The position numbers and the translations under genes were made by a program. Under the pieces are notes generated by a model. It was not told the origin of the DNA and searched no databases. It saw only the letters and a program-made list of their open reading frames with translations. Of a DNA stretch of 54,859 nucleotides, positions 6,000-41,060 are shown piece by piece. Positions within the stretch are counted from its first letter, which is position 1, and every line of letters begins with the position of its first letter. Source of the DNA: a virus (taxonomy: Duplodnaviria; Caudoviricetes); IMG/VR virus record IMGVR_UViG_3300044971_000858, positions 1-54,859 of that record, one strand, 5' to 3'.

Positions 6000-6002
6000 T
6001 CT

Positions 6003-6750: not shown

Positions 6751-6917
6751 AAATCGTAAATATACTACTTCAACGCTTGAGTGAAAATAGCACTTGGCGC
6801 GGATTGATTCTGATTGCTACGGCAGTCGGAGTGAAGATCGAACCAGAACTTCAAGAAGCTATTCTTGTCGCTGGACTCGGCCTCGTCGGACTAATCAATG
6901 TAATCCGTAAGGGCTAA
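6747..6917 (+). CDS. Holin-like protein
   Basis: MKIVNILLQRLSENSTWRGLILIATAVG...VAGLGLVGLINVIRKG; two hydrophobic segments; precedes endolysin candidate. Confidence 0.7.
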   Translation: MKIVNILLQRLSENSTWRGLILIATAVGVKIEPELQEAILVAGLGLVGLINVIRKG

Positions 6918-6919
6918 TC

Positions 6920-7459: not shown

Positions 7460-7491
7460 CTTAACCTAAACTATCGTTAACGATAAAAACT

Positions 7492-13068: not shown

Positions 13069-13089
13069 TTATCGGAAACGATAATCCCT

Positions 13090-18125: not shown

Positions 18126-21100
18126 ATGGAATTTGAATTTCTTGGTGAAGTTAGTGGCAAGTCTGAAAAACCATCTACGACAAAACCGAATGATTCTGGA
18201 ATTGAGTTTGAATTTTTAGATGAAGTTACAGAGCAACCATCTGGACTCTTGCGTCAAGCGGCTGATATACCTATTCAGTTTGCCAAGGGTGTAGGTAGTG
18301 CGGTGAGGGGATACACGGATTTGTTTGGCGCGGATAATGAAGTATCCAAATCCATCGCTGGTTATGAGGACTACATGGATAGCATACTCTCTGCTGAATC
18401 AAAGAAAGATTCCAAGCGAGTATCAGAGCTTCTACAGAAGGCTAAAGATGGTGGATTCTTAGATAAGGTTGCGGCGGGATTTGAAGCATTCGCATCTGCA
18501 CCAGCAGAGATGACTGCAAATACTTTGGGGTATATGGTTCCTCAATTAGTGTTTGGTGTGGCAGGCAAGGCCGCGCAGTTGTCTAAAGCCGCGCAGGTTG
18601 GTCTTACTATAGGAACTGGATTTGCCCAAGGTGTAGGTATGGGTAAGGGGAATATCTACCAAGGCACGAAAGACTATCTTCGTGAGCAAGGTGTCCCAGA
18701 AGATCAGATTGAGCCTATCGCTTCACGGGCGCAAGCGTATAATGGCAAAAACTTGGATCAACTTCTTCTCAGCGGTGGACTAAACGCTCTCGCTGCATCT
18801 ACGGGTGCTGAAGCTATCTTGACTCGCGTTCTTTCCAAACAAGGCAAGGATGTTGGTGAAGATATTATCAAAGGCATCTTGAAGGGTGCTGGCGCGGAAG
18901 CTCCAATCGAAGGTGTCCAAAGCGCACAGGAAGCGATTGCTCCTAACATAGCACTACAAAGAGAAGGCTTTAATGTCCCGACATTCCAAGGCGCAATTGA
19001 AAGTGCTACAACTGGAATTGTTGCTGGTGGTCTTATCGGTGGCGCAGCGGGTGCTATCGAAGCTGCGAGTCCAGAGCAGAAGGCTCTTACCGATATTGAG
19101 AAGGAAGCTAACCGCAGGATGCGCGACTTGGAATCTGATAATCCAGCGGCGCAAGCACTCTCTACAGAGATTACAAGGCTGGAGCGGGGCATTGATAACA
19201 AACGACAAGACTTGGATGCACTTGAATCTACTTCACCAGAAGCAAATAGCTTGAGGTTGGACATTGCGGCAGACCAAAAGAAGTTGGCTACACTTAAAAC
19301 TGAAGCTGCCAAGTTTGGATTATCGGAAACGATAACTACGATAGAAGAACAACAGGCAGCGTTAGCAAAAACGATTACCGCACCCGCTGAACCAAAACCA
19401 CTACCGACTGATGTATTGCCCACCGAAACACTGGGCGCAACCTATGGCAGAGAAGAACAAGTCTATGATGTATTCGGAGAGATAACGCGCAAGCCAGTAT
19501 CTATACCTAAACCTGCTGAATTGCCCGCCGCGCCTACGATTGAAGAACAAACCGCAGAGGGAACCTACGGAGGACAGACTGGAGTGTTTGATGTATTCGC
19601 TGGAGCAAGAAGGAAGCCAGTAGTCACCGAGCAAGCTGCACCAGCAGAAGCTCCCGCGCCAGAGATTGCGCCAATTGCAGAACCTACTGTTAAAATTTCC
19701 CGTGGAGAAAATTTCTCTATGGATGGAGAATACAATGTGTCGATTGGGGATAAAAAATATAGGATTTTCAAAGATTCAGAAAGTGGATACTGGTATGATG
19801 CTGGCGTTCGAGAAGATGCTGTAACTCAAGGGAAGGCAATTCAAGGAATGCCTTGGTTGGGACTTCTATCAACGGAAACGCGCAAAGACGCTATCGCTGA
19901 ACTTGTAAATAAATACAAGAAAGAGCCAATCACCCCCGCAGTATCGGAAACGATAACGGAGCCAGTCTCAGTTGAAAATGTAGTCGGCAAGAAGGTGACT
20001 GATTCAATGGGTGCATTGCCTCAAAAGGCAACCAAAGCGAGGGAAGCATTGCAGGGATACACGCCTATTTTCAAGATAGGAGACTTCTATGAATTTATTG
20101 GTGAAGAAGCAGGGCTATCTGGATCAACTGTTGTTGGCACTGGAAAGTCGGCGAGGTCATCACTTCCATATCATCAAGTATCAAAGCTACAAGAAATAGC
20201 AAACAAGACGGGGAAACCTATCGCTATTATCGCAAATACAAAGGTAGCTGAAGTCATTACCCCCGCAGTATCGGAAACGATAACGGAACCAGTAACCCCA
20301 ACCGAAGTTAAGACAACTACAGAACCAACCAAGACATCTCCCGTGGCATCGACAAGTAAGGCTGCTGGTGATGTTGTGAATGAGATTGAAAGGGTAGTTG
20401 ACATCAAGGGTGTAAGAGCAGCAAAACAAATCTTTGATAAAGTAATCCAAACATTAGAGAGTTTAGTCGAGGAATCAAAAGCATCCGCTGGATTTCAAAC
20501 CGTTGAGTTTCGTCCATCCGCGCAAAAGAAATATGGTCTTGGCACAATATTTATTGACGGAGAATATGTAGCTTCAGTTGGAAAATATGGAGATGTTCGA
20601 CCTAATGAGGAATATGAACTAAAAAAAGAACTCCCATCAAGTTTTGATATTCGTGACTTATCTCCTGCGAAACTAAAGCAAAGCATTGAACTTGGGGTTG
20701 CTTCAAAAATAGCAAGAAGGAATAATAAGAATCAAAAGTATATTGTTCACATTCCGGGTGATGGAACTTTTAAGATTGAATCAAATCCAATTGCTGTGGC
20801 TGAAGTTGTTCGCAGAATCAAAACTAACGGGCCTTCAGCGTGGAAGGGAATTTATGAACCAAAACTCGGAGAAAAAGGCGGCGTTCTAATCCCCACCAAA
20901 GAAGACTTCATCCAAGCAGGACAGAACATCTACGAGGCTGGCATGGAGTTTGGTGCTTGGGCTAAACAGATGATCCAGCGATTCGGTGATGCGGTGAGAG
21001 AGTTTCTTGGGGAAGTATGGCAAGCAGTAAGTGGTGCGCCAGCGAAGTTGAATGAACTGATGGGGTATCTTCCAAAGAAGGGTGAGGCAGGTGCAGTCAA

Positions 21101-24100
21101 TGTAGGTAAGGGTAAGATAGGTGAGAAAGCTAAAGCCGCAGAAAAGCCAGCAGAACCTACTCCAGAACAACCAACGCCTACACCAGAAAAGCCAACTAAA
21201 CCTGTAACAGAAGCCCCATCAGCAGCCCGCAAAAAAATAATGGGCGAAGAGATTGGTGAGTTGAAAGACACACCAAAAAACATCATAGCTAAAACCAAGG
21301 CATTACTTCGTGAAAGAGTATTTGATCCTACCAAAGTAACCGAACAGAATACGATTGAAGCATTCCGTGCGCTTGGAAAGCTGACTGGCAACAAGCAAGA
21401 AAGAAGGGATTTTGCTGATGAACTCAATGATATTGCTGCGATTGTAGAAGATACTGGTGCGGCTTCTGAAGTAAGCATGGGTGCTGCATTGTTCGTCAAT
21501 GACCTCTTTGAGTATGCTGTAAGGCTGGCAGCGGAAGGGCAGAAGATGATGCTTGGCATAATGATGACCAATATCAATCGGTTGCCAACAGGAACAGAAG
21601 GCCGAAGTGATGCTGGTAGGGCATTGCGAGCAGCAAGGGAGATGAAAGATACCTTCCTTACTATGGCGCAAGCCGAGCAGGATGCCTTCATCAACTACGC
21701 TGCTGAGTTTGTTTACGGCCCAAACCCAACCAAAGAACAAGTTGACTCTATCCAGATCGGATACGATGCGGTAGAGAAAGTTGAAGAACCAACTGCTGAA
21801 GAATTGACTGATGAGCTTGATGAAGTAGGCAAGAAGACAGGCACAGATTTGGTAGCAAAGATTGAAGATGAGATTGCTCAGGCTACATCACCTACTAAAG
21901 ACCCAATTGTATCTACCATACTTACATTGCAGAAGCTCTATGGTGGAACTATTGAAACGAGATACCTTGAGGCGCGGGAGTCGGCGCAGAAGATTAAGGA
22001 AGGCGTAAAGAAAATCCTTACTGGCGGCATCACAAACTACCGAGGAAAAATGGTTGAGGGTGCGGCTTCTGGATTGGAGTCTGGATTCTGGAAGACACTT
22101 GCTAATACGGAGAATAAACCCGGCCCACTTGGAGAACTTGATAATGCACAGAACCGAGAGCTTGGGAGCATTGTAAAGAGTATGCTTATATCTCTTGGTT
22201 TAAAGGGAACTCCACCCAATACCAAGATGGACATCTATGAGCAAGTAGCCAGCATCCTTGGGGAGAAGCCACTTTCTAACGACAAAATCAAACTTGCTGA
22301 TGAAAAGATTAGGGATGAGATCAATCGCAAGCGGGAAAAAGAACTTTCAGAAACTGAAGATCAAGATGCTCAAGATGCCATCAATCTGAAGTATAATGGC
22401 ATAGAGAACGCTTGGGATCAGTCGATGGCGCGGCAGTTGGATATACCAATAAGTGATGCAATGCTTCGCCGCCTTATCTTCAATGAACTCAAAGAAGAAA
22501 AGACGAGTATTACTGATCTTGCTAAACTGATGAACGAAGAACCTGTTATTGGATCAAGCAGGCAGGATCGTTTGGTTAATTCTATCATCAGCAAGATTGC
22601 TGGAGTAACATTTGAAGGACAGAATCCTGCTGACTATTCTGCACTCAAAGAATACTTAGGTAATCAACTTGAATCATTGATCCAAGAGAAGCAGTTGAAG
22701 TCCAATGCCGCTAAAGCTAAAGCGCAATTAGCCAAAGATGCTAAAGGAAGCGTTGAGTTGCAGGCAGAAAAGGCAGAGAACGAAGCTCAATCGCAGATCG
22801 AAAGATTGGCTAAGATTCAATCAGATACTCCTTCATTCCCCGGAGAAGCGCAAATGAATCCTGTCCATGAGGCAGTAAAGAATGCCTTGAAGTTGAATCT
22901 GAATAGGATGTTTGATCCAAGTCAATCTGCTGAAATCATATCTAACTTCAAGAAATCATTCGTGAAAGAACTCATGGGATTTGGGGTGAAAGAACAGCCA
23001 GCAACTATTCTCGCTGATGTTGTAGGAAGGCAGATTGAAATCAACTCTTTAAACAACCAACTTAAATCCATTGATCGTGCGATTGAGAAAGGATCAATCT
23101 CGGAAATCGTCAAAGCAATCAAAGATACTCCGCTTGAAGAACAGCAGAAGCCAAATTGGAGATACGAAGTCATGCGCGACTACCTCCGCAAAGCAGGATT
23201 GAATGTCGCCCAGTCTGAAAGGATTGCGAAGTTGATGGACATCTCGCTCCAGAAACGCTTCACACAGGCTAAAGAGCAAGCGTTCACGGATGCCGTCAGC
23301 AAGACCGCGCCTTGGAAGGATGGCAATGTCCGTAGTAAACGAGCATTCCAGCAAGTTCTCCAAGCAATCCGTTCTGGTGCGCTTGATCCATCTCGCAACA
23401 TGGCAAGTGATATTGCCGCACTCAATGGATGGACTGGATTCACAGCAGACCAATACAAGAACCTACTCAAGAACGACACTATCCTTGCTGACCCAAAATC
23501 CAGTGATCTTGAAAAATCAGAAGCCTACAAAGCAATCCAAGACATCATTTCAAAATCCAAGTTGCCAATCAGAGCAAGGGATGTCATCGGACAATACTAC
23601 GATGCACAAGCATTGAGTGGTATCCCTACATTGACTGTGAACTCATTTTCACCAATCGCATTTGCTATGCGGAATGCTATCATTGAGATTGGATCGGGAA
23701 CACTCAAAGGTAATCCAAAGGCTATCACCAATGCGGCGACTGCCTTTGTGGATTCGATCAAATCGTGGGCGAATACAGTTGCCTTCTCTTTCAAGAACAA
23801 TGTCACAGTTTATTCAAATGTGGATTACATCGTGAACGATGACAATCTTCTTAGGCTTTATCGTCGCGGAGTAGATCAGTTCAAAGGTGGCAAGACACCA
23901 AGAGAACGAGCGGACGGAGTAAAGAACATGATGATTGGTATGATGGATTATGTTCGTCGTATCTTGAATGCTCTCGACTACGGCGCGATTGCCTCACTTC
24001 AGAACCAGAACATCAGCAAGTATGCGATGGCAGTAATGAAGAACAAGGGGATGAATAACAAGCAGGCTAATGAAGTCTTCGCTGCCATGATGAAAGAGAA

Positions 24101-25583
24101 GAATGATTTCTACCTTAATCAAATCGCTATCGGAACCGATAAAAACAAGGCGAGCATTCTCGCGGATGAGTATTACATTTCATCTTGGAAAAAATCTTTG
24201 GAGAAAGAAGGCGTTGGAGCAGGAGAAATCAAATCTGCAATGGATGCCGCTATCAACGATGCCTTGTCTTCAGTAGGTAGGAACAGGCAATCCCTCGACG
24301 CATTCAAAGAAGAAGCGACAAATTTAAAAGACGCTGGATTGGCATCCTCTCCTGCATTGTGGTTGTTGGAGTCTGTAGCTAACGCTGCTAATAGAAGCGA
24401 TAGCCAATTCATTAAGGTATTTAGCCGGGTGATCTATGGATTCGCCATCGTCCCTGCTCGCGTGATTCGTGAGACTGCATGGTTCTCGCCTTATGGATTC
24501 GTTCGCCTTGCGGTAGACAAAGCAATGCGTGGAAAAAATATGGACTCTCGTTATGCTCAATCCTTGGGAAGTGACTTCCAACGCCAGCAAAGATTCAATG
24601 AAGCGGTTGCTGGAACTGTAGCATTGATTGCGCTTGCCTCACTTCGCGGAAGTTCAACTGACGAACCAGAGGAAGATGAGTTCAAGATAGTATTTACTGG
24701 TAATGGGCCACAAAGGAAAGATGACGCTCAATTTTACGACTCTTGGTATAAGGCAGGCAATAAGCCAAACTCAATGATCGTGTCGTTTGGGAAAACCAAA
24801 TTTACTTTGAACATGATGAGGGGATTTGAGGCGTTCACTTGGCCTGCTATGATGCTTGGCGCGGTGGATGACCTTGAGATTCGCAAGAAGCAAAAGCGTG
24901 ATGCAAATACAGGAACTCAATTGGAAGATGCGAGCATCGTTGCAGGGTTTGTATTTGACGCAGCACTTCGCCGTGGGCCGTATGCCTTCACCACAAAATC
25001 ACTCTTCGGAACCTACGGAGACATCGGTGTAGAGGGCGTTGCCAAGGGGTTGACCTTCCCTGCAAAGACTCTGATTCCAGTATTAGGAACAAGTCTTGCA
25101 AGTAACCTATCGAACTTCATCAACGATCCGATTGATAGACGCACTCTGGATGGCGCGGTATGGTCAAACATCCCATTCATCGGGCCTGCCGTAGCACCGA
25201 AATCCTTAAATGCTTTTGGTGAACCATCGCTATCAACTGACTTCGCAAGCAAGATGTTTAAGCTCGGAGTTCCGATTGTCTATGACATCCCGACTGACAG
25301 AGAATCAATCATGCTTCATGAGTTAGTCTTGAGTAAGGGTGGCGGGCCAAGCATACCGACTCGGAATCAGCTTGCACAAAGGCTCGATAGGCAACCAACC
25401 AACAAGGAATACGAGATGTTCGTGAAGGAATATGGTGCGGTTCTCACGAAGTCCATGAAGAAGAATTACGAGAAACTTTCTGCGATGAAACCGGAGGCTT
25501 ACACCAAGGTTGTTGAGCGAATCGGTAATCGTGCAAGGGACATCGCAGAGAACAAAGTTAGGGTTGCTGCGAAAAAGCCTTGA
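18126..25583 (+). CDS. Very large internal virion (polyvalent-type) protein with MutS-domain-I-like motif
   Basis: 2485 aa; FKIGDFYEF; Pro/Glu linkers; ends the structural operon. Confidence 0.7.
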   Translation: MEFEFLGEVSGKSEKPSTTKPNDSGIEFEFLDEVTEQPSGLLRQAADIPIQFAKGVGSAVRGYTDLFGADNEVSKSIAGYEDYMDSILSAESKKDSKRVSELLQKAKDGGFLDKVAAGFEAFASAPAEMTANTLGYMVPQLVFGVAGKAAQLSKAAQVGLTIGTGFAQGVGMGKGNIYQGTKDYLREQGVPEDQIEPIASRAQAYNGKNLDQLLLSGGLNALAASTGAEAILTRVLSKQGKDVGEDIIKGILKGAGAEAPIEGVQSAQEAIAPNIALQREGFNVPTFQGAIESATTGIVAGGLIGGAAGAIEAASPEQKALTDIEKEANRRMRDLESDNPAAQALSTEITRLERGIDNKRQDLDALESTSPEANSLRLDIAADQKKLATLKTEAAKFGLSETITTIEEQQAALAKTITAPAEPKPLPTDVLPTETLGATYGREEQVYDVFGEITRKPVSIPKPAELPAAPTIEEQTAEGTYGGQTGVFDVFAGARRKPVVTEQAAPAEAPAPEIAPIAEPTVKISRGENFSMDGEYNVSIGDKKYRIFKDSESGYWYDAGVREDAVTQGKAIQGMPWLGLLSTETRKDAIAELVNKYKKEPITPAVSETITEPVSVENVVGKKVTDSMGALPQKATKAREALQGYTPIFKIGDFYEFIGEEAGLSGSTVVGTGKSARSSLPYHQVSKLQEIANKTGKPIAIIANTKVAEVITPAVSETITEPVTPTEVKTTTEPTKTSPVASTSKAAGDVVNEIERVVDIKGVRAAKQIFDKVIQTLESLVEESKASAGFQTVEFRPSAQKKYGLGTIFIDGEYVASVGKYGDVRPNEEYELKKELPSSFDIRDLSPAKLKQSIELGVASKIARRNNKNQKYIVHIPGDGTFKIESNPIAVAEVVRRIKTNGPSAWKGIYEPKLGEKGGVLIPTKEDFIQAGQNIYEAGMEFGAWAKQMIQRFGDAVREFLGEVWQAVSGAPAKLNELMGYLPKKGEAGAVNVGKGKIGEKAKAAEKPAEPTPEQPTPTPEKPTKPVTEAPSAARKKIMGEEIGELKDTPKNIIAKTKALLRERVFDPTKVTEQNTIEAFRALGKLTGNKQERRDFADELNDIAAIVEDTGAASEVSMGAALFVNDLFEYAVRLAAEGQKMMLGIMMTNINRLPTGTEGRSDAGRALRAAREMKDTFLTMAQAEQDAFINYAAEFVYGPNPTKEQVDSIQIGYDAVEKVEEPTAEELTDELDEVGKKTGTDLVAKIEDEIAQATSPTKDPIVSTILTLQKLYGGTIETRYLEARESAQKIKEGVKKILTGGITNYRGKMVEGAASGLESGFWKTLANTENKPGPLGELDNAQNRELGSIVKSMLISLGLKGTPPNTKMDIYEQVASILGEKPLSNDKIKLADEKIRDEINRKREKELSETEDQDAQDAINLKYNGIENAWDQSMARQLDIPISDAMLRRLIFNELKEEKTSITDLAKLMNEEPVIGSSRQDRLVNSIISKIAGVTFEGQNPADYSALKEYLGNQLESLIQEKQLKSNAAKAKAQLAKDAKGSVELQAEKAENEAQSQIERLAKIQSDTPSFPGEAQMNPVHEAVKNALKLNLNRMFDPSQSAEIISNFKKSFVKELMGFGVKEQPATILADVVGRQIEINSLNNQLKSIDRAIEKGSISEIVKAIKDTPLEEQQKPNWRYEVMRDYLRKAGLNVAQSERIAKLMDISLQKRFTQAKEQAFTDAVSKTAPWKDGNVRSKRAFQQVLQAIRSGALDPSRNMASDIAALNGWTGFTADQYKNLLKNDTILADPKSSDLEKSEAYKAIQDIISKSKLPIRARDVIGQYYDAQALSGIPTLTVNSFSPIAFAMRNAIIEIGSGTLKGNPKAITNAATAFVDSIKSWANTVAFSFKNNVTVYSNVDYIVNDDNLLRLYRRGVDQFKGGKTPRERADGVKNMMIGMMDYVRRILNALDYGAIASLQNQNISKYAMAVMKNKGMNNKQANEVFAAMMKEKNDFYLNQIAIGTDKNKASILADEYYISSWKKSLEKEGVGAGEIKSAMDAAINDALSSVGRNRQSLDAFKEEATNLKDAGLASSPALWLLESVANAANRSDSQFIKVFSRVIYGFAIVPARVIRETAWFSPYGFVRLAVDKAMRGKNMDSRYAQSLGSDFQRQQRFNEAVAGTVALIALASLRGSSTDEPEEDEFKIVFTGNGPQRKDDAQFYDSWYKAGNKPNSMIVSFGKTKFTLNMMRGFEAFTWPAMMLGAVDDLEIRKKQKRDANTGTQLEDASIVAGFVFDAALRRGPYAFTTKSLFGTYGDIGVEGVAKGLTFPAKTLIPVLGTSLASNLSNFINDPIDRRTLDGAVWSNIPFIGPAVAPKSLNAFGEPSLSTDFASKMFKLGVPIVYDIPTDRESIMLHELVLSKGGGPSIPTRNQLAQRLDRQPTNKEYEMFVKEYGAVLTKSMKKNYEKLSAMKPEAYTKVVERIGNRARDIAENKVRVAAKKP
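19932..20287 (+). repeat. 29-bp direct repeat pair (19932-19960, 20259-20287)
   Basis: ACCCCCGCAGTATCGGAAACGATAACGGA twice, 327 bp apart. Confidence 0.9.
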
Positions 25584-25607
25584 CACCCGCAGAGGCTGAT
25601 GTAGATT
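25580..25607 (+). promoter_or_regulatory. Sigma70-like promoter
   Basis: TTGACA-N16-TAGATT. Confidence 0.55.
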
Positions 25608-25612
25608 GGTTC

Positions 25613-25686
25613 TGCAAACTGCATTGGGTTTGTTTCATGTTATTCATTAGGGGACGCACCTCGGAGAAATCTGGGGTGCGTTTTCT
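25613..25686 (+). ncRNA. Candidate ~75-nt small RNA ending in an intrinsic terminator
   Basis: Promoter upstream; hairpin GACGCACCTCGGA-GAAA-TCTGGGGTGCGTTTT; no ORF. Confidence 0.45.
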
Positions 25687-25733
25687 GTTATCGGAACCGA
25701 TAAAAATATTTTCTAAAAAGTATTAAAAAAATG

Positions 25734-25761
25734 TTGACACGATAATCGTAGTCTGTAGATT
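25734..25761 (+). promoter_or_regulatory. Sigma70-like promoter for recombination operon
   Basis: TTGACA-N16-TAGATT with AT-rich upstream region. Confidence 0.65.
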
Positions 25762-25800
25762 TGCCTTGTGAACGGCACAACCTCCGTCCATAAAAACCTA

Positions 25801-26010
25801 ATGAAAGACACACCAACAGTAAAAAAAGAAGTAGCAGAAAAACCAGCAGTGAACTCCGAACTCCAGCGTGACATCTATCTCCGCTTGGTATCATCGGCAG
25901 CAGCAGACGGACGATTCCTTCTCGGCAATCTTCCCAATGCACAGGCAGTAGTCAAGCAGGGCGACCACCTCAAAGGTGTGGCTGAAATTCTTGCCAAGTG
26001 CTACGAGTAA
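25801..26010 (+). CDS. Hypothetical protein
   Basis: ATG after AAAAACCTA leader; 69 aa. Confidence 0.6.
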   Translation: MKDTPTVKKEVAEKPAVNSELQRDIYLRLVSSAAADGRFLLGNLPNAQAVVKQGDHLKGVAEILAKCYE

Positions 26011-26147
26011 TGGAAGACGATTACGACTTGAGCAGTGAGATTGAGGAGGAGCGGCAAGAAAGGCACGACCAAGAATGCGCTCGACTCGATTGGAAACAAG
26101 GAATCCGCCGACCATTTGACGAACCTGACGATGACGATCACGAATAA
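26010..26147 (+). CDS. Small highly acidic protein (45 aa)
   Basis: MEDDYDLSSEIEEERQERHDQECARLDWKQGIRRPFDEPDDDDHE; TAATG coupling. Confidence 0.55.
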   Translation: MEDDYDLSSEIEEERQERHDQECARLDWKQGIRRPFDEPDDDDHE

Positions 26148-26994
26148 CTTTTTTCTCCCAGCACCCATGTATCGGGCGTTGGCACATGATGGTTATATGG
26201 CAGGTCAAAGGAAGGCTGACATCTCAGTGACTACCTTGATCGGGCCACCGAAGATCAACCAACTCAAGAAACGCTACTCTGACCAGATCGTAGAAGACGC
26301 ATCCGATAGGGTGTGGGCATTGCTTGGTCAGTCAGTGCATAAGGTTCTTGAGTTGGCAGGAGGAGAAGATGAGATGACTGAGAAGCGTCTTTACAAAGAG
26401 ATCAATGGATGGACGCTGACCGGACAGACTGACTTGTATGAAGTAGAGAAGGGAATCCTTTCTGACTTCAAGGTAACTTCAGTCTTCTCATTTCTTCTCG
26501 GACAAAAATCTGAGTGGGTAGCCCAACTCAACTGCAACGCCCTACTTTGGAGAGAGTATGGGTATTCCCCAAAGAAACTCCAGATCGTCGCCATCCTCCG
26601 TGACTGGCAGGCAAGTAAGGCAGAGTTTGATAAAGAGTATCCTCAGTGTGCAGTTCACATTGTTGACATACCTCTTTGGGATAACGAAGAGTGCATCGCC
26701 TACGCAGCAGAGCGGATCAAACTCCACCAAGCGGCGGCAGCAATGCCAGACGATACCATCCCTGCTTGTGATCCAAAGGAACGCTGGGCTAAACCAGATA
26801 CATTTGCCATTAAAAAAGATGGCAATAAGAGAGCAGCTAAAGTGTGCGAGACATTGGAGGAGGCGCAAAACTTACTTCCTACCTATGGAGCGAAACACTC
26901 AATCGAAAAACGAAGCGGAGGGGATATGCGTTGCGAGCGTTACTGCTCAGTAGCCCCCTTCTGCCACTACTACAAAACAACCTATAAAGAATAA
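26131..26994 (+). CDS. Cas4-like PD-(D/E)XK exonuclease
   Basis: GQSVH...E...GQTD...SDFK...QLN; C-terminal CERYC...FC. Confidence 0.8.
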   Translation: MTITNNFFLPAPMYRALAHDGYMAGQRKADISVTTLIGPPKINQLKKRYSDQIVEDASDRVWALLGQSVHKVLELAGGEDEMTEKRLYKEINGWTLTGQTDLYEVEKGILSDFKVTSVFSFLLGQKSEWVAQLNCNALLWREYGYSPKKLQIVAILRDWQASKAEFDKEYPQCAVHIVDIPLWDNEECIAYAAERIKLHQAAAAMPDDTIPACDPKERWAKPDTFAIKKDGNKRAAKVCETLEEAQNLLPTYGAKHSIEKRSGGDMRCERYCSVAPFCHYYKTTYKE

Positions 26995-27001
26995 CAAATA
27001 T

Positions 27002-27391
27002 ATGAATAACCTAATAGTTGAAAATATCACAAAAATTGATCCAAATATTGGATGTCACGAAACCCATTACGCAGCAATTGCACACATCCAAGAAGCAGGC
27101 GGGTTGTGCGCGTTGATAGACTTGACCAACGGACTTGACGTGGAAAGAGCCAAAGAGTTTGGCGTAAACTTCGATGAGTTACTGGTATCAAAAGCGGATA
27201 CAGCATATGAAGCATCAATGGTAGTCCGAACCCTAATTGCAGGAGGAGTTGATTTGATTGAGATTAACACCTGTAAATTCGTTTATGATCCAGAGAAGGA
27301 GGCGGCAGCAAAAGTTAAATCAGACAAATTCCACGCTGAACTCAGAGAGCATTTGTTGAAACGAAAAGAAGGAGTGAAATCAAATGAATAA
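27002..27391 (+). CDS. Truncated RecA-derived protein, catalytic motifs absent
   Basis: CALIDLTNGLDVERAKEFGVNFDELLVSKADT aligns with RecA [32 protein letters not shown]. Confidence 0.75.
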   Translation: MNNLIVENITKIDPNIGCHETHYAAIAHIQEAGGLCALIDLTNGLDVERAKEFGVNFDELLVSKADTAYEASMVVRTLIAGGVDLIEINTCKFVYDPEKEAAAKVKSDKFHAELREHLLKRKEGVKSNE

Positions 27392-27644
27392 CTTTAGAGC
27401 AGAATTAAAGCCCAGTGAACAAGTTGAAATCGGGGCATCTGATGCAGCTTATTTTTGGGAAAAAGCAACACACATATTGCAATGGGAAGTAAATAAAGAA
27501 TTCCATAAAGATCATCCTATGGTTGTTGCTAAATTAGCTGAAATTCAAGCAAGTTTATACACAAATAAAGCGATCACTACAGCTATTCAAGACTTGGCAA
27601 GTTCAATTAACTTTTTAGCTGAAGTAGTTAAATGCCGCGAATAA
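27384..27644 (+). CDS. Hypothetical protein
   Basis: 86 aa, coupled to upstream gene. Confidence 0.6.
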   Translation: MNNFRAELKPSEQVEIGASDAAYFWEKATHILQWEVNKEFHKDHPMVVAKLAEIQASLYTNKAITTAIQDLASSINFLAEVVKCRE

Positions 27645-27652
27645 TAAACCAA

Positions 27653-27889
27653 ATGAATAGTAAGCTGCTACCACCTATCGAAAGACTGGCGATGCTGCCA
27701 GAAGAGAATAGGCAAGAGGCATTAGACTGGATGGCAAACCAACCTCCAGCAAGGATAGATGATACTGTTGATCCAATCAGCCGATGGGAAATCCGCATTA
27801 GCTTGGGAGGATTAGGAGACTTCTATCGTATCTACGACAAAGCAACCAAAGAAATCAAAGAACTGGAAGTAAACGAAGACAACTGGTAA
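27653..27889 (+). CDS. Hypothetical protein
   Basis: 78 aa in operon (alternative start 27632). Confidence 0.55.
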   Translation: MNSKLLPPIERLAMLPEENRQEALDWMANQPPARIDDTVDPISRWEIRISLGGLGDFYRIYDKATKEIKELEVNEDNW

Positions 27890-27896
27890 ATAAATT

Positions 27897-28721
27897 ATGA
27901 GTAACCAATTAGAAGGAATCGAACAGAAAGACATCATCAAACGGGTGACTGGCAAGGTCACTAAATTGTGGGAACCTAAGACATTCAACGGCCCGAAAGG
28001 TGAGTTTGTCATCCAAGGTGGAGACATTGAGATCGACGGGCAGACCTACGGCCTCAAGTTCTTTAACAATACACAGGAGCAAAGCATCAAAGGTAATGTA
28101 GTCACACTCTCATCAGTCCGTGGCAAGCATGGTTTGACTGGAGTATCCTTGGAGCATGAATCCTACGAAGGTAAGAACGGCAAGGTAGATCGTGACATCA
28201 TCAAGGTCACAGCTACTGGCAAGGTTGAGTTTGACCGACCAAGCGAAGAGCCTGCCCGTGTTACATCAGCACCCAAGGTTATCGTAACCGATAATCCAGA
28301 GAAGGCACTCGATGAGATCGTGGAGATGCACCAATACATCGACTCCTTGGTTCGCATGGCATACCTTGGCAAGATCACAGACGAAGAGACTCTTCGCTCT
28401 TATGTCTCCTCGGTCTTCATCGAAGCTAACCGCAAGGGTATCCACTACTCGACCAAGACCGAAGCACCAAAGAAGGAAGAACCAAAGGAAGAGCTTAATC
28501 CCGACGACTGGGGTTCAGCAATCGTTCCAGAAGGACATCCTAAGTTCAAAGAACTTGGCGGCAAGAAGCTGGCTGAGATCGGCAAGCCTGCCCTCACTAA
28601 ACTCTACGAGTATTTCTTGGAGAAAGGATTCACAACTCCATTCGCTAAGTGCGTAGAGAAAGCAGCAGAAGACCTCAACCTCGATGCTCCAGTAGAAGAA
28701 GCAGACGAAATCCCTTGGTAA
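27897..28721 (+). CDS. Probable ssDNA-binding protein
   Basis: OB-fold-like N-terminus (VTGKVTKLWEPKTF); acidic tail EEADEIPW. Confidence 0.55.
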   Translation: MSNQLEGIEQKDIIKRVTGKVTKLWEPKTFNGPKGEFVIQGGDIEIDGQTYGLKFFNNTQEQSIKGNVVTLSSVRGKHGLTGVSLEHESYEGKNGKVDRDIIKVTATGKVEFDRPSEEPARVTSAPKVIVTDNPEKALDEIVEMHQYIDSLVRMAYLGKITDEETLRSYVSSVFIEANRKGIHYSTKTEAPKKEEPKEELNPDDWGSAIVPEGHPKFKELGGKKLAEIGKPALTKLYEYFLEKGFTTPFAKCVEKAAEDLNLDAPVEEADEIPW

Positions 28722-28763
28722 TCCTGTTCTCCCCAGAACACCTAACCTAAACCTAAACACAAC

Positions 28764-29741
28764 ATGAAAAAGAAAGAATTAGAATTGTTCAGCCCAACTC
28801 AAGAGGGAATCATCGTTCCTCTGTCAAAGTATCTCAAGCAAATGGTCGAGTTTGCTAAATCGGAATGGCCCGGAGTAGCGATTACAGACTCCAAGGTGAA
28901 AGAAGTGTGGAAACTGGTAGCCTCCAACAGCTACATTGATGATGACCAACCAAATGAGGTTGCCGAAATGTTTGAGAAGATGTCCGCTGACTTGGATATG
29001 GCCGAGGAAATGGAAGAGGAACGCCTTGCCATGCCAGCAGTAGCAGAAGAAGTTGAGGTCGAACTTACCGAAGATGAACCAGTCAATGAATCCCTCGCTC
29101 TTGTGCAGAGTGTGAAGGATGGATTGGAACTTTCTTCGTTCACTCAGAAGTTCGACATTGGATCGGGGATGACTCAGTGCGTTCCCAAAGGTAAGGTAGA
29201 GATGAAGGATTGGGTAGCAGCATTTGCATTCGGTCTGACTCTGGAGTCGGGCGCACAATGGATCATCGGTGATTCGGTTGTAGCCTTGGAGAACGCAGGG
29301 CATGAGGATGTAGTCAACCAACTCTGCTCTAACTTCAAGAAGTCTTATCCAACTGTCTCCGGTTATGCCCGTGCTTGCCGTGCATTCCCTGCCGATAAGC
29401 GCGATCCAGCCCTTCCATTCACAGTCTATCGTGAGATTGGCAATGCTAACTTTGGTGACAACAGCACCAAGAAACAGCAGGAACTTCTTGAAGCAGCGAA
29501 GACTGAGAAGCTATCTTCAACTGAAGTAAGGAACCGAGTGCGGCATGAGCAGGGTAAAGAAGTAGATAAACCATCCGGTCATCGTTTTCTTCTTCTCAAT
29601 GTAGGTAACTTCTCCAACTCTGAAGTCCTCCGCTCAATGCCCGAAGAAGTGCAAGAACACCAACTCCTAATTGATTTAGGTGACAAGTCATGGTTTGATC
29701 CAGCCGAAGGAGAATGGTTGAAATTCTTGAAAGAACAATAA
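28764..29741 (+). CDS. Putative DNA-binding protein with LmbU/ParB-C-like helical HTH domain
   Basis: QWIIGD...YARACRAFP..KR..LPFTVYREI...LLEAA...LSSTEVR pattern. Confidence 0.5.
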   Translation: MKKKELELFSPTQEGIIVPLSKYLKQMVEFAKSEWPGVAITDSKVKEVWKLVASNSYIDDDQPNEVAEMFEKMSADLDMAEEMEEERLAMPAVAEEVEVELTEDEPVNESLALVQSVKDGLELSSFTQKFDIGSGMTQCVPKGKVEMKDWVAAFAFGLTLESGAQWIIGDSVVALENAGHEDVVNQLCSNFKKSYPTVSGYARACRAFPADKRDPALPFTVYREIGNANFGDNSTKKQQELLEAAKTEKLSSTEVRNRVRHEQGKEVDKPSGHRFLLLNVGNFSNSEVLRSMPEEVQEHQLLIDLGDKSWFDPAEGEWLKFLKEQ

Positions 29742-29744
29742 TTT

Positions 29745-30023
29745 ATGTCAGAACCAACACAACAAAACGAAACCTCGAAAGCAGTCCTTGAAGCGTTCAC
29801 GTTCATCAAGTCAGCCGACGAGACACTAAACGAACGAGTTCATGCAATGGCCAGCCTGTTGCATACAGCAGCGATGATGGTCATCAAATCTGAATCCCGC
29901 AAGGGTGAAGGGTTTGAAGCTATCAAGTATCTGGAACTTGCATTCATGTATTATCAAAACTCTCAGTTCCGCAAACGCTTCGATAAGGAAGAGGAAGAGG
30001 AAGCCCCTCGGATTATCAGCTAA
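29745..30023 (+). CDS. Hypothetical protein
   Basis: 92 aa, last in operon. Confidence 0.6.
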   Translation: MSEPTQQNETSKAVLEAFTFIKSADETLNERVHAMASLLHTAAMMVIKSESRKGEGFEAIKYLELAFMYYQNSQFRKRFDKEEEEEAPRIIS

Positions 30024-30048
30024 AGTATCGTAACCGATAAAAAAGTAT

Positions 30049-30076
30049 TTGACATTAGCTTTCGATTCGCTAGAGT
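30049..30076 (+). promoter_or_regulatory. Sigma70-like promoter
   Basis: TTGACA-N16-TAGAGT, directly after a palindrome copy. Confidence 0.6.
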
Positions 30077-30089
30077 GCTTGTATCCAAT

Positions 30090-30177
30090 CAAGTTCTAGC
30101 CGACTTGGGAGACTAATTTTCAAATTGAAAAAATGGGTCTGTTGTAGTCGGCTAGCTACGACAGGCCCAATTTTTTT
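30090..30177 (+). promoter_or_regulatory. Two-hairpin leader with complementary loops and terminator
   Basis: CTAGCCGACT (30096-30105) complements AGTCGGCTAG (30146-30155) in the terminator hairpin. Confidence 0.6.
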
Positions 30178-30179
30178 GC

Positions 30180-30535
30180 CACCATTGGATCGTGTAGCCA
30201 GCGGGGATGCGTGTAGGACGCACCGAGAGTAGTCTGCTAAATACTGGTGAAGGAGTGGAGTTGGAATGGCTGCTGAGACTGTTATCCTGCCAACTTAATG
30301 CTGTCCTTCGGGACGACTTGCAATTAGTCAACGAGATTAGACTAGCCTAGGTAAAGGAAGACCGCTGGGCGTGGATTGTTAAGCGAAAGGTGACAACACC
30401 CATACTGAAACGTATGATTCATTCGGCAAGTTTTCCCAAATTCCTTGGGAGACTTGTCGCTCTGGTTCTGCCCCGCCAGAAACGCAGGAGATTCATTGAT
30501 CTCCGAGTAGAATATATTCTGAATAGTTTCAGAAA
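30180..30535 (+). ncRNA. Candidate ~350-nt structured ncRNA
   Basis: Many stems, e.g. CCAGCGG/CCGCTGG, GTCC-TTCG-GGAC, CGGCAAGTTTTCCCAA/TTGGGAGACTTGTCG; no credible ORF. Confidence 0.5.
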
Positions 30536-36929: not shown

Positions 36930-37475
36930 TTAGTTTTCGCAGGAGTAGATGGTATCTTGGAGTTTGAGTTTTGGGAGGGTGGGTAGGGTGTAGGAGTTAT
37001 CTTGGAAGGTTATTCTATTGGTTGGTTGGATGGTTAGTCTTCCGTTGGTGAGTTCTATGAAGATGAATTCTTTGTCTTGGTCTGGGCTATCTGACCAGCC
37101 GTCGTTTAGGTGGGTGGTGGAGAAGAGGTAGGTTCCCTTTAGTATGTTTGGGCCTATCTTGGTTGTTACTGGCATTCCTCTTAGGATTGGGTTTTGGAGT
37201 ATGGTGAAGTTGTATGAGTAGCAGTCCCAGAGTTGGCTTTCTTCTATACGCCAGTTTTCGAGTGCTTGTTCTTTGAATCTTACTGCGTTTGGTGGGATGT
37301 TTCTGTAGAGTGCGCCGCCTTCTCTGAGTATTACATTTATTCCCCATGCTCTGCTTGGTATACTTGTTAGTCCTATCCACATAGCTTCTACTGGCCCGAT
37401 TGGGTTTTCGTGGGTATATTCGCTATCTATCCAGATGTAGCGATGGGTTGGTAGTGCGCCGATTTTTGTATTCAT
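36930..37475 (-). CDS. Hypothetical protein with extreme A/C third-position bias
   Basis: 181 aa; QLWDC...YLFST...PTNRI. Confidence 0.75.
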   Translation of the reverse strand: MNTKIGALPTHRYIWIDSEYTHENPIGPVEAMWIGLTSIPSRAWGINVILREGGALYRNIPPNAVRFKEQALENWRIEESQLWDCYSYNFTILQNPILRGMPVTTKIGPNILKGTYLFSTTHLNDGWSDSPDQDKEFIFIELTNGRLTIQPTNRITFQDNSYTLPTLPKLKLQDTIYSCEN

Positions 37476-37601: not shown

Positions 37602-37685
37602 TTACCTTCTGGTTGTTGTTTCTATGATGAAGCAGGCTACTACTATGCTCCATGCTAAGATTATTGCTGCTATCTGGTCATTCAT
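37602..37685 (-). CDS. 27-aa hydrophobic peptide
   Basis: MNDQIAAIILAWSIVVACFIIETTTRR; ATGA overlap. Confidence 0.35.
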   Translation of the reverse strand: MNDQIAAIILAWSIVVACFIIETTTRR

Positions 37686-38194
37686 AGTCCGAGTATCTTT
37701 GCCCCGTTTGGGTAGGTTCCGCGATAGATTTCCGTCTGTGCTTTCCTTACCACAAATACAGATGGTTTTCCGCTATGATCCCAGTAGGAGGTTAGTGGTT
37801 CTTTCTTAAATTGGACTACTGTGACTCCCATTTTTTCTGCTATCTCTAAGGCTATTGGGTCGGATTTGTAGATTTCTTTGTAGAGGACTCTCTTTATTTT
37901 ATATGCGGCTATGGTCTTTAGGCAGTCTCTACATGGGAGTAGGGTGGATACCAGTGTCTTTCCTTCGCCGGGTTGTGTATACCTCAAGGCATTCTGTTCT
38001 GCGTGGATTACGAACTTTGATCTCTCTTCTCTTGATGACCAGTCTTCTTCTACACCTTGAGGGAATCCGTTATACCCTACTGATGCTATGGAGTTGTCTT
38101 CTCTTAGGATCACCGCGCCAACTTTATGCCACGGGTCTTTTGACTTCTTGGCTACTACTTCAGCTATACTCATTGCATATTCGTCCCAGTTCAT
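37682..38194 (-). CDS. dCMP deaminase
   Basis: SKDP..KVGA, GYNG, HAEQNA, PCRDC. Confidence 0.9.
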   Translation of the reverse strand: MNWDEYAMSIAEVVAKKSKDPWHKVGAVILREDNSIASVGYNGFPQGVEEDWSSREERSKFVIHAEQNALRYTQPGEGKTLVSTLLPCRDCLKTIAAYKIKRVLYKEIYKSDPIALEIAEKMGVTVVQFKKEPLTSYWDHSGKPSVFVVRKAQTEIYRGTYPNGAKILGL

Positions 38195-39318
38195 GGATAG
38201 TATCTGTTCATTGCTTCGATGTCGTTTCCTTTGGCATACCATCCGTCTCCGGTGTAAACATCCATAACATCTGCGAAGTATTTCTCATACATGGGTGCTA
38301 CCCGCTCTAAGGTGAAGTTCTTTCCAAATCGGTGGCAGTCGTATGGGCAGATTCGGTCGATGTTCTTAATCGCATCTACGTAGTCACCCATAGTCCGGCA
38401 GCGGAATCCTGTATAACCATGTAGGTTATTTTCGGTGAAGCTACCCCAGTCGGAGGTAATTGTTGGAGTGCCAGAGAGTAGGTTTTCGATTTGGACTCCA
38501 CCGAATGGTTCTACATACTGACTTGGCAGGAATGATGCTTTAGCCCTCGACATGAGCCTCTTTCTGGTAGGAACATCAGCGTATCCTACATAGTGAACAT
38601 GGTCTGGTAGCTTGTAACCTTCCTCTTTTTGGCCTGCGATAACCAATTTTACCCCTGCTCGGTAGGTAGCTTCAATGGCAATATCTACACCTTTCCCAGA
38701 GTATACCCTACCCAGATACAGAAAGTAATCTTCTTTCTGGCCACAGAAGTCGAAGTCTTCTTTATCGAAGTAGTTTGGGATTACCACCGCATAGTTATCT
38801 TGCTGGCATTGTCCTACTGCCTGCATTCCGCAAAACGCATGGTAGATTGCGTAGGATTCAAATACCTTCCACCTCGCCCAGTGTCCACCTGCATATCCAA
38901 TACCCGGCTCAACTGTGATTAGGTCTGGATGCGCGTCACAGATTGGACGAACGCCACTTCCCCAAAATGGGAGAATGAAGTCATTCTTCTTCTTGCGCTG
39001 CCCAATTGCCTTAATAGCGTTTCGATAGAAGGTTTGATAGGCATGGTCATTCGTATCAAACTTGAAGAATGTTTTCCTCCAGTCATGTGATCCATAGCTT
39101 TTATTGAAGTCATCGTTGGTTAGGACAGGCACGTGTTCTGTGCAGATTAAGTCTGAATCTTCGTGTCCGTAGTGGATTACTTCATGGCCGCGCTGGGTCA
39201 TCATCTTCCCGAACTTCACTACCTTTTGGGTATAAGCGCAGGCGTTGAACTCTTTGGAGCTAACTGTGTGAGGTAAGCCAAGGCAATGGAATCTAAATTT
39301 ATCGTTTACGATACTCAT
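38191..39318 (-). CDS. Glycosyltransferase (GT-B fold, GT4-like)
   Basis: YLGRVYSGKG, EPFGGVQIE (EX7E), GTPTI. Confidence 0.9.
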   Translation of the reverse strand: MSIVNDKFRFHCLGLPHTVSSKEFNACAYTQKVVKFGKMMTQRGHEVIHYGHEDSDLICTEHVPVLTNDDFNKSYGSHDWRKTFFKFDTNDHAYQTFYRNAIKAIGQRKKKNDFILPFWGSGVRPICDAHPDLITVEPGIGYAGGHWARWKVFESYAIYHAFCGMQAVGQCQQDNYAVVIPNYFDKEDFDFCGQKEDYFLYLGRVYSGKGVDIAIEATYRAGVKLVIAGQKEEGYKLPDHVHYVGYADVPTRKRLMSRAKASFLPSQYVEPFGGVQIENLLSGTPTITSDWGSFTENNLHGYTGFRCRTMGDYVDAIKNIDRICPYDCHRFGKNFTLERVAPMYEKYFADVMDVYTGDGWYAKGNDIEAMNRYYP

Positions 39319-40175: not shown

Positions 40176-40330
40176 TACTTTTTCTTTGCAGTTTTTGCTG
40201 ATTGTTTGAATGCCTTTGCAGTTGGTGCGCCTTTGCTTCCAACCTTCCGCATCTTCTCGCCACTACCAGCGGCGATGCGTTTGCGTTTAGCGTTGATGTT
40301 AGCGTAGAGTCCCTTTGGTTTTTTGTTCAT
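40175..40330 (-). CDS. Small basic phage protein (51 aa)
   Basis: GLYANINAKRKRIAAGSGEKMRK..GAPTAKAF; TAATG coupling; not in ORF track. Confidence 0.7.
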   Translation of the reverse strand: MNKKPKGLYANINAKRKRIAAGSGEKMRKVGSKGAPTAKAFKQSAKTAKKK

Positions 40331-40372
40331 ATTTGTATTGCTTTGTTAAAAACGATGGCTATGATTGATTAC

Positions 40373-40915
40373 ATGAAAAATAAAAACTGCTCACACTGCG
40401 AAAAAGAATTTACTCCTCGTCGCAATTCCCAAAAATTTTGTTCTCATAGATGCGCTGCATTTGATGTTGCAAAACGTTTTAGCAAACAAAGAGGAGAGAA
40501 AAAAAGAAATGGAATAACAAAAATTTGCAAGATTTGCTCCACATCTTTTTATGTTCCTAAATATAGAATTCCTACAGCCCTTTATTGCTCTCGCAGATGC
40601 ACATCTATTGCCAATCCTGAAAATACAAAAAAAGCAAGAGATGTCAGTCCACTTATGGCAAGGGCTGGCAAGTGCGCTCCAAGAATATACAATTACATCA
40701 CCATTAATGGCGAAAGAATTAGAGAACACAGGCATATCATGCAATGTTATCTTGGAAGAAAACTTGAAACATGGGAACACGTGCATCATATAAATGGAAA
40801 CGGACTTGATAATAGAATAGAAAATCTACAAGTTTTGAGTAATTCTGAACATCAAAAATTAGAATTAAGTTTAGTTACTTCTTCTTTGGAACTCCAGAAG
40901 AGCGAAGAGCAATAG
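40373..40915 (+). CDS. HNH endonuclease with Zn-finger repeats
   Basis: CxxC...CSxxC twice; EHR...VHHING...DNRIENL. Confidence 0.85.
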   Translation: MKNKNCSHCEKEFTPRRNSQKFCSHRCAAFDVAKRFSKQRGEKKRNGITKICKICSTSFYVPKYRIPTALYCSRRCTSIANPENTKKARDVSPLMARAGKCAPRIYNYITINGERIREHRHIMQCYLGRKLETWEHVHHINGNGLDNRIENLQVLSNSEHQKLELSLVTSSLELQKSEEQ

Positions 40916-41060
40916 CCAATGCTTGTTTGCGGCTCTTAGCCATAGGTGCTTTCTTTGGGCCTTTAGGGTTCACGCCAGCCTTAAGAGTTCCACGCTTGTA
41001 TTCACCCATTGTTTTTGCCACTTTCGCGGCCTTACCTGCTTTTGTTGTTGGTTTTTTCAT
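40875..41060 (-). CDS. Small basic phage protein
   Basis: KVAKTMGEYKRGTL...SRKQALAIAL. Confidence 0.7.
   Translation of the reverse strand: MKKPTTKAGKAAKVAKTMGEYKRGTLKAGVNPKGPKKAPMAKSRKQALAIALRSSGVPKKK

Follow-up and report, generated by a model that had tools for sequence, protein, structure and literature searches.

A RecA-derived phage protein lacking catalytic residues is encoded by an optional cassette and may mimic a RecA filament tip

The DNA analysed here, referred to below as the window, is the IMG/VR virus record IMGVR_UViG_3300044971_000858 (Duplodnaviria; Caudoviricetes) at its full length. The record is complete, with completeness estimated at 100 %, and its 54,859 bp have a G+C content of 45 % and carry direct terminal repeats of 86 bp. 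The gene of interest encodes a 129 amino acid (aa) protein related to bacterial RecA, here called mini-RecA, which an earlier note made from the sequence alone had described as a catalytically dead RecA fragment, encoded by an open reading frame (ORF) with a clean start and coupling to the next gene. The ORF is as described (Table 1). It starts 7 nt past the stop codon of a PD-(D/E)XK (Cas4-like) exonuclease gene, and its own stop codon overlaps the next ATG in the 8 nt sequence ATGAATAA. Two small variable genes, orf86 and orf85, follow, and the segment, referred to as the slot, is closed by a conserved gene for a 274-aa protein. The nuclease gene probably starts at the Met of MTITNN (26137), with the longest ORF running from 26035, and relatives of the nuclease were found in 186 phage records.

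The relationship of mini-RecA to RecA was examined using three types of search. In Pfam at E<=1, RecA (PF00154) was the only family matched (E 2.4e-12, 47.3 bits against a cut-off of 27; residues 23-107 on positions 70-154 of the 262-position profile), with no relationship to RecX, DinI or PsiB. A phmmer search against PDB sequences gave 23 distinct matches at E<=1, 22 of them RecA (E 1.7e-41 to 7.8e-6), and placed residues 25-101 on chain positions 80-156 of E. coli RecA. Profile-profile alignment with 17 full-length RecAs using hhalign covered residues 22-103 (99.3 % probability, E 2e-20). These searches agree with each other and with the earlier note, which had matched the core to roughly residues 75-145 of RecA, and they place it at about residues 72-156 of the E. 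coli protein. The score against the equivalog model for full-length RecA (TIGR02012) was 43.2 bits, below the cut-off of 325.3, and the only PHROG match was to phrog_97 (UvsX-like; E 0.01). No second RecA-like sequence was found anywhere in the 54,859-bp genome. Mini-RecA has neither the N-terminal arm nor the C-terminal domain of RecA; it starts at the equivalent of strand beta1, and the RecA alignments stop at residue 103 or earlier, corresponding to about residue 164 of RecA in P0150 numbering.

The columns of the catalytic motifs were compared between 14 members of the mini-RecA family and 71 RecA rows. No GxxxxGK[ST] sequence is present in mini-RecA, and the column of the Walker A Lys72, which holds Lys in 58 of the 71 RecAs, has Cys in 10 family members and Met in four, while two variants are without the segment altogether. 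The phmmer alignment shows IDLTN in place of IDAEH at the catalytic Glu and EINT in place of VVDS at Walker B. At the Glu96 column (Glu in 70/71 RecAs) the family has Thr (12) or Gly (2), and at the Asp144 column (Asp in 69/71) it has Asn (12, the window included) or Asp (2). The loss of Walker A, of the catalytic Glu and of Walker B was therefore correctly called in the earlier note, and so was the absence of the DNA-binding loops, as the protein ends before L2 and the position of L1 is occupied by an unrelated charged segment that is predicted to be helical. In place of a buried Val of the Walker B strand, seen in 65/71 RecAs, the family has Glu, Gln, Ala or Gly, in keeping with adaptation to solvent exposure in a truncated fold. 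Both the 113-aa variant P0013 and the 90-aa variant P0014 lack the first 17 residues.

Modelling with AlphaFold2 using only family sequences gave a poor model, with a predicted local distance difference test score (pLDDT) of 56. With the 71 RecA rows and a singleton, P0021, added to the alignment, the pLDDT was 87.4 and the predicted template modelling score 0.74. The second model has helices at residues 20-31, 47-53, 68-80 and 97-126 and strands at 36-40, 60-64 and 85-89. Residues 12-93 were superimposed by VIA-align on chain positions 66-148 of E. coli RecA (1xmv) with a Z score of 11.1 and a root-mean-square deviation (rmsd) of 2.3 A over 81 residues, and in Foldseek the best 50 of 65 matches at E<=0.001 were all RecA, though these structural matches lean on the RecA rows in the alignment of the model. 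In a viral structure library, the sole match at E<=0.001 was a 333-aa RecA-like recombinase. The C-terminal tail (residues 101-129) was aligned to RecA neither by hhalign, which stops at 103, nor by structure, where alignments stop at 93-99, consistent with the new helical tail proposed in the earlier note. A MAFFT alignment and some HMMER stretches hinted that the tail could be L1 and helix F of RecA, and this assignment was dropped because of where the hhalign and structural alignments end. Prediction of a complex of mini-RecA with residues 1-270 of E. coli RecA, used as a stand-in, gave scores of 0.15 and 0.17 against a mark of 0.32, which speak neither for nor against binding.

A search restricted by length identified 13 clusters of homologous proteins of 113-162 aa with 60-95 % identity. 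An unrestricted profile search over 1.84 billion representatives gave 1,571 matches at E<=1e-3 and 12 at E<=1e-10, and the top three were the shorter variants P0013, P0014 and P0015. The first two begin just past the former P-loop, and P0015 (82 aa) has the same start point, with a sequence that diverges after about residue 57. The P0013 cluster includes 10 members of 113-114 aa on contigs of up to 31.7 kb. No fused or longer form of mini-RecA was present among the rows of the profile search that were examined, which did not include P0017, a 2,928-aa representative with 18 separate RecA-like stretches that may be an assembly or design artefact.

Selection was assessed using DNA copies from viral and metagenome contigs, with Nei-Gojobori counts and binomial tests against neutrality. 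In the core (residues 18-100), omega, the ratio of non-synonymous to synonymous divergence (dN/dS), was 0.06-0.35 (p 4e-3 to 1e-10) at a synonymous divergence of ~0.46-0.68. In the tail it was 0.5-1.1, which was not significant, and in the first 17 residues, where the mean entropy was 1.0 bit, it was not below 1. For the neighbouring genes, comparison of the window with the related locus L005 gave values of 0.05-0.15. Neutral decay, which the earlier note had proposed to check through same-length homologues and dN/dS, does not hold given the 13 clusters and the omega of the core, and mini-RecA is a real gene family under purifying selection. That the gene is a functionless relic, or filler hitch-hiking as a RecA fragment in a recombination-prone slot with no benefit to the phage, is accordingly very improbable. 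Its patchy, optional distribution (see below) and the near-neutral tail and N-terminus would suit a relic, as would the lack of a Shine-Dalgarno-like motif before the gene, though only 7/34 genes in the genome have one. However, the frame is intact in 8/8 distinct DNA copies as well as in the 13 protein clusters, the length is conserved across variants, and the replacement of buried residues by polar ones also speaks against a relic.

Other RecA-like metagenomic proteins without Walker A and/or Glu96 were seen (P0125, P0117, P0021, P0063, P0042, P0097 and P0020). Some of these proteins are only 101-138 aa, and most of the set are singletons, possibly from truncated contigs. P0125 has an extra N-terminal segment before the RecA core, and P0042 and P0097 (~210 aa) have weak matches to ImuA. 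Scans of viral contigs with P0014 and P0125 found nothing, and a scan with P0013 found only loci already known. In a 107-kb viral contig (L006; coordinates 5734-7491), a full RecA gene is interrupted by an inserted 87-aa ORF and a spacer, which may be an intron or a homing element, leaving an N-terminal part of 227 aa and a C-terminal part of 186 aa.

The genetic context of mini-RecA was examined in 10 loci carrying the gene, and in all of them (10/10) it directly follows the nuclease gene. The gene located downstream varies, with orf86 in four loci, orf85 in four and neither in two, and the window has both. The ATGAATAA-type overlap is a generic junction of the slot, and in cassette-less relatives a like junction links the nuclease gene directly with the 274-aa gene. 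A survey of 40 IMG/VR loci with a nuclease at 75-97 % identity identified mini-RecA in three, all of them already known contigs. The slot holds orf85 alone in 16 loci and other short inserts in four, and in the remaining 17 the nuclease and 274-aa genes are only 5-8 nt apart. RecA-like sequence was found in 0/5 of the cassette-less relatives rated 100 % complete. Mini-RecA is thus newly recognised as an optional and apparently mobile cassette in a variable slot, absent from most relatives.

Public contigs were also aligned to positions 25600-30200 of the window. A joint of 26988 to 27897, from the end of the nuclease gene to the 274-aa gene, was present in a contig from an RNA library and in a DNA run, and a joint of 26981 to 27897 was found at a depth of 39.9. 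The sides of these joints are short (21-34 nt), and the survey of the IMG/VR loci served as an independent check on them. In one lake run, the depth over mini-RecA was 6-8, compared with 41-600 over most flanking bins. One RNA-library run has zero depth over 27140-27755, and its contig, which joins the end of the nuclease gene to the 274-aa gene, comes from a relative without the cassette.

The mini-RecA genes of the window and of locus L002 are 98 % identical, whereas their nucleases share only 83 % identity, and the window nuclease is 96-97 % identical to nucleases from cassette-less genomes. The cassette and its flanks therefore have different histories, and the cassette appears to move between diverged phage backbones. 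The nuclease of cassette-less relatives ends in the same last three residues as mini-RecA, and the slot junctions share overlapping stop/start motifs of the type ATGA(A/G)TAA, suggesting recombination at these junctions. The slot itself (26989-27897 in the window, and loci L023-L062) looks like a hot spot of gene exchange, either vacant or occupied by orf85, orf86, mini-RecA or other short inserts.

The optional status of the gene fits an accessory role in modulating the host better than a core role in recombination. An alternative is that mini-RecA is a positive mediator or seed, whose mimicry of a filament tip would nucleate or stabilise host RecA filaments on phage single-stranded DNA (ssDNA) as a 5' cap, in the manner of Rad51 paralogues or a mediator of the lambda Orf type, and so help a phage without a recombinase of its own. 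The gene lies within a recombination/replication operon beside the exonuclease gene, and the genome also encodes a RusA-like resolvase, an O-like initiator and DnaB. PHROG scans of 37 phage ORFs found no recombinase of the Erf, RecT, Rad52, Sak4 or Gp2.5 type, and a Planktothrix phage carries a homologous nuclease gene two genes away from an Erf recombinase. One phage protein cited as a recombination mediator is lambda Orf (PMC11841131). However, the gene is dispensable, as it is absent from 37/40 related loci with no RecA-like sequence in 5/5 complete relatives, the nuclease gene is joined directly to the 274-aa gene in 17 loci, and there are neither DNA-binding loops nor an evident ssDNA tether. 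A mediator role is thus quite unlikely.

Mini-RecA could instead be a re-used scaffold that binds a partner without a RecA-NT motif (the nuclease, the 274-aa protein, the product of orf86 or orf85, or an unrelated host target), in which case its RecA ancestry would say nothing about its function. Its invariable position after the nuclease gene and the overlap of its stop codon with the start of the next gene are in keeping with this, and an acidic core (isoelectric point 4.5) with a basic tail (9.7) would suit contacts with protein or nucleic acid. However, the downstream partner varies, the nuclease and 274-aa genes work without mini-RecA in most relatives, and the strongest constraint lies exactly on the surface used for RecA oligomerisation, as set out next. 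We consider the scaffold explanation unlikely.

Conservation along the protein was measured as the entropy per segment over 15 sequences. The most conserved block is formed by residues 53-67, the counterpart of about RecA 107-121, in which 10/15 columns are invariant, the mean entropy is 0.17 bit and each pair of genes has 1-2 non-synonymous versus 3-5 synonymous differences, whereas conservation within the core is lowest in the former Walker B strand (0.88 bit). Within this block, residues 58-63 are the counterparts of RecA D112, N113, L114, L115 and S117. Residues 112-117 of RecA are accessible at the filament's 3'-proximal end, adjoin residues 28-30 of the neighbouring subunit and contact UmuC (PMC4374754). 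The N-terminal motif of RecA (RecA-NT) mediates RecA-RecA binding, and an equivalent mode of binding to RecA or ImuA has been proposed for homologous motifs in UmuC and ImuB; Asp139 is paired in a salt bridge with Lys6 of the neighbouring subunit, and the acceptor surface for the motif is exposed only on the 3'-end subunit (PMC6511836). The Asp139 column, Asp in 66/71 RecAs, is Asp in 12 family members and Glu in two. ImuA', a RecA homologue, has been found by experiment to bind the RecA-NT motif of ImuB (PMC11791113). The claim that the retained region includes part of the RecA filament interface is thus borne out by the entropy values together with PMC4374754 and PMC6511836, as the 3'-tip surface is present and is the most conserved block. 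A profile of 23 RecA arms was searched against six frames of the phage genome without finding a RecA-NT arm (best E = 4), and as the phage encodes no arm of this kind, a RecA-NT partner would have to come from the host.

Mini-RecA would accordingly be a stand-alone, enzymatically dead slice of the RecA core, comprising three strands and three helices (about RecA 72-156) and a charged helical tail, that is predicted to bind neither ATP nor DNA and, as it has no N-terminal arm, could not polymerise. The strongest constraint lies on the face presented by a RecA subunit at the 3' filament end, where the following RecA docks with its N-terminal arm and where Y-family polymerases such as UmuC are proposed to dock with their RecA-NT-like tails. 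As selection preserves the acceptor face for RecA-NT, a mimic of the filament tip is the most economical mechanism, and we tentatively favour the reading that mini-RecA is a non-extendable tip mimic binding the RecA-NT motifs of host RecA or of translesion synthesis (TLS) polymerases, while putting its chances somewhat below even. The likeliest target would be RecA, either free or at the 5' terminus of a filament, with TLS polymerases as a further possibility, and the complex would be a dead end because mini-RecA offers no arm of its own. The outcome would be damped growth of RecA filaments and damped RecA-dependent signalling (SOS, prophage induction and RecA-dependent defences) during infection. 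The homology, the loss of catalytic residues, the conservation of the family, purifying selection focused on the tip block and the optional status of the cassette are observations; that RecA-NT motifs are bound, which target is involved and in which direction the effect goes are what we infer from them. The roles of filament cap, SOS inhibitor or decoy suggested in the earlier note are likewise proposals. Mobile elements are known to carry inhibitors of RecA or SOS, including PsiB, RamT/RamA and GIL01 gp7 (PMC11841131), and the optional, horizontally exchanged status of mini-RecA resembles that of phage genes for host modulation and counter-defence more than that of core recombination genes.

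Several points weigh against a filament-tip mimic. Conservation of the tip block could be structural rather than a signal of an interface, as the block is also a core strand and turn that is conserved in RecA for both reasons. Three of the eight core strands may not fold alone, and the model made from the family only was poor, as noted above. The family is narrow, being confined to one uncultured freshwater phage group, so that any function may be very host-specific, and neither 50,697 cultured phage records nor the scanned representative prokaryote genomes yielded a member. The only RNA-library contig that reaches the slot belongs to a cassette-less relative, which would equally suit a relic.

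A more elaborate form of the filament-tip mimic, which we regard as possible but doubtful, is a 'RecA-NT trap', an 85-residue RecA-derived pseudo-ATPase domain that would present only the 3'-tip face and soak up the N-terminal arms of host RecA, and perhaps the RecA-NT tails of TLS polymerases, shutting down filament extension, SOS signalling and mutasome assembly in infected cells and spreading as a swappable anti-host cassette. If this were true, no natural RecA antagonist made from RecA would have been known before, and mini-RecA would also be the smallest unit known to carry a RecA oligomerisation acceptor site. The dynamics of RecA filaments govern recombination, SOS induction, prophage induction and stress-induced mutagenesis, and a drug strategy against evolvability has been put forward in which the RecA-RecA and RecA-polymerase interface is blocked (PMC6511836). 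A selected domain of ~85 residues that keeps only this interface would define the minimal acceptor site, and mini-RecA could give a genetically encodable inhibitor or nucleator of RecA and SOS, depending on the direction of its effect. It would also illustrate a route by which phages could make decoys from host proteins, namely to truncate, kill the enzyme and keep one interface, and its optional, horizontally moving distribution in lake phages makes it a candidate counter-defence or host-range gene.

Of the known systems, the closest analogue is ImuA, which is likewise derived from RecA, is without the Walker A/B ATPase site and the C-terminal domain, and does not self-associate (PMC6511836). 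ImuA accepts the RecA-NT motif of ImuB (PMC6511836, PMC11791113), whereas for mini-RecA the same role is only proposed. ImuA keeps the whole core and belongs to a chromosomal, SOS-regulated cassette, with NCBIfam models for ImuA and ImuA' of 181 and 153 positions, whereas mini-RecA (113-130 aa) keeps less than half of the RecA core. Assignment of mini-RecA to the ImuA/ImuA' family was rejected, as it scored 15.9 bits against a cut-off of 65 for the ImuA' model NF058630 and gave no match to NF033429 at E<=0.01, and neither imuB nor dnaE2 is near the gene, with no polymerase match among the 37 ORFs scanned against PHROGs. In function it is probably most like ImuA, by analogy, though outside the ImuA family.

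Sak4, which has itself been called a 'mini-RecA', is also a shortened RecA-superfamily protein encoded by phages in recombination modules, but it is ~245 aa, has both Walker A and B and anneals ssDNA (PMC2896510). The protein described here is half that size and lacks both Walker motifs and the DNA-binding loops, and its closest match is bona fide RecA. Identification as Sak4 was rejected on its length of 129 aa, the loss of both motifs and the Pfam result, which gives PF00154 only. PsiB, RamT/RamA and GIL01 gp7, all small accessory proteins encoded by mobile elements, have a damping effect on RecA filaments or SOS, and PMC11841131 describes none of them as RecA-derived, whereas mini-RecA would mimic the subunit interface of RecA itself. 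RecX, DinI and the BRC repeats of BRCA2 regulate a recombinase filament via its ends or the subunit interface. The BRC repeats mimic the RAD51 oligomerisation motif, and thus imitate the arm and bind the core, whereas mini-RecA would imitate the core and bind the arm. RecX has been described as a natural inhibitor of RecA (PMC5766188). Compared with bacterial RecA, to which mini-RecA is related over the aligned part in sequence and predicted fold, every functional element is gone except the acceptor face for oligomerisation. No account of a motif-dead RecA fragment encoded by a phage was found in literature searches, which did not extend to the supplementary tables of PMC2896510 and PMC6511836. 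Mini-RecA is probably best described as a RecA-derived pseudo-enzyme, and its role as a RecA modulator of a mobile element is only proposed.

The region was detected in 24 public runs from 20 studies labelled lake-water, freshwater or plain metagenome, seven of which hold at least half of the sampled words. A blastn search of positions 26000-30100 against cultured phages found nothing, and neither the terminase nor the 274-aa protein has cultured-phage relatives. A tblastn search of mini-RecA against the 50,697 cultured phage records matched 36 records, all below 60 % identity, with a maximum of 44.9 % among the matches listed, and the annotated ones among those listed were recombinases of the RecA/UvsX type. 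A pattern-limited scan of representative prokaryote genomes gave two loci, with 43 % and 31 % identity, and no prophage copy was seen. The earlier note had taken mini-RecA for a captured host fragment, and this part of its account was not supported, as no RecA from the cultured-phage search exceeds ~45 % identity in the region they have in common and a phage RecA is an equally possible donor. A group-1 glycosyltransferase gene (38191-39318, - strand; phrog_3408, E 9e-188) has 51 matching records, all of them Synechococcus phages, and 49 of these are at 60-80 % identity, so that this one gene hints at a picocyanobacterial host. Genes for a ferredoxin-like protein (36930-37475) and a dCMP deaminase (37682-38242) adjoin it. 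No tRNAs that could serve as a host lead were found in the phage genome.

Table 1. Features of the mini-RecA gene and its surroundings in the window
Feature	Coordinates	Strand	Basis or remark
Mini-RecA coding sequence	27002..27391	+	129 aa; ATG 27002, TAA 27389-27391; ORF list, Pfam RecA 47.3 bits, 13 same-length homologue clusters
Variable N-terminal 17 residues, possible vestige of RecA strand beta1 and P-loop	27002..27052	+	Alignments
Conserved RecA-homologous core, residues 18-100	27053..27301	+	phmmer, hhalign, model, omega
Cys18 codon, column of Walker A Lys72	27053..27055	+	Column counts
Thr42 codon, column of catalytic Glu96	27125..27127	+	Alignment, column counts
Most conserved block, residues 53-67, about RecA 107-121	27158..27202	+	Entropy; surface defined in PMC4374754
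Asp84 codon, column of RecA Asp139	27251..27253	+	Column counts; salt bridge in PMC6511836
Asn89 codon, column of Walker B Asp144	27266..27268	+	Alignment, column counts
Charged C-terminal tail, residues 101-129, predicted helical	27302..27388	+	hhalign, structural alignment, omega
Start/stop overlap of mini-RecA and next gene, 8 nt, ATGAATAA	27384..27391	+	Sequence
PD-(D/E)XK (Cas4-like) exonuclease gene	26137..26994	+	Directly upstream of mini-RecA; phrog_2139 E 2.8e-52
orf86	27384-27644	+	Small variable gene of slot
orf85	27632-27889	+	Small variable gene of slot
274-aa gene closing slot	27897..28721	+	Conserved; present in 40/40 nuclease loci
Likely transcription unit with cassette	25734..30169	+	Consensus scan only
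Sigma-70-like site	25734-25761, twin 25580-25607	+	Consensus scan; site count not above shuffles
Terminator-like hairpin, strong	30134-30169	+	End of likely transcription unit

For the neighbouring genes, searches of PDB sequences were without matches and the ESM Atlas gave unnamed viral clusters only. The 274-aa protein had no match in Pfam, PHROG, NCBIfam or PDB sequences, and a role like that of single-stranded DNA-binding protein, which was a guess from its acidic C-terminal tip only, had no support from any tool and was set aside. A conserved 325-aa gene further downstream (28764-29741, + strand) has a weak match to the LmbU family (E 8e-7, 29 bits against a cut-off of 125), and Atlas leads point toward ParB-HTH-like families, suggesting that its product may be a DNA-binding regulator.

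Elsewhere in the genome, PHROG scans of 37 ORFs showed no recognisable recombinase or DNA polymerase. Two genes resembling endonuclease VII (phrog_1035; 13090-13803 and 48540-49106), an HNH endonuclease gene (40202-40915) and the RusA-like resolvase gene (41057-41518, - strand) were identified. Two collagen-like fibre genes are located at 1408-3921 and 4182-5999, and a single ORF of 2,485 aa (18126-25583, + strand) lies downstream of the tail-fibre genes. A palindromic 15-mer, TATCGNWAACGATAA, occurs 30 times when both strands are counted and up to one mismatch is allowed, whereas shuffles predict 0.03 occurrences. These represent about 22 sites (for example 4162-4176, 7472-7486, 13070-13084, 25689-25703, 30026-30040 and 48524-48538), many of them 5-25 nt before gene starts and several within the 2,485-aa gene, and the 15-mer may serve a phage regulator as an operator or promoter element.

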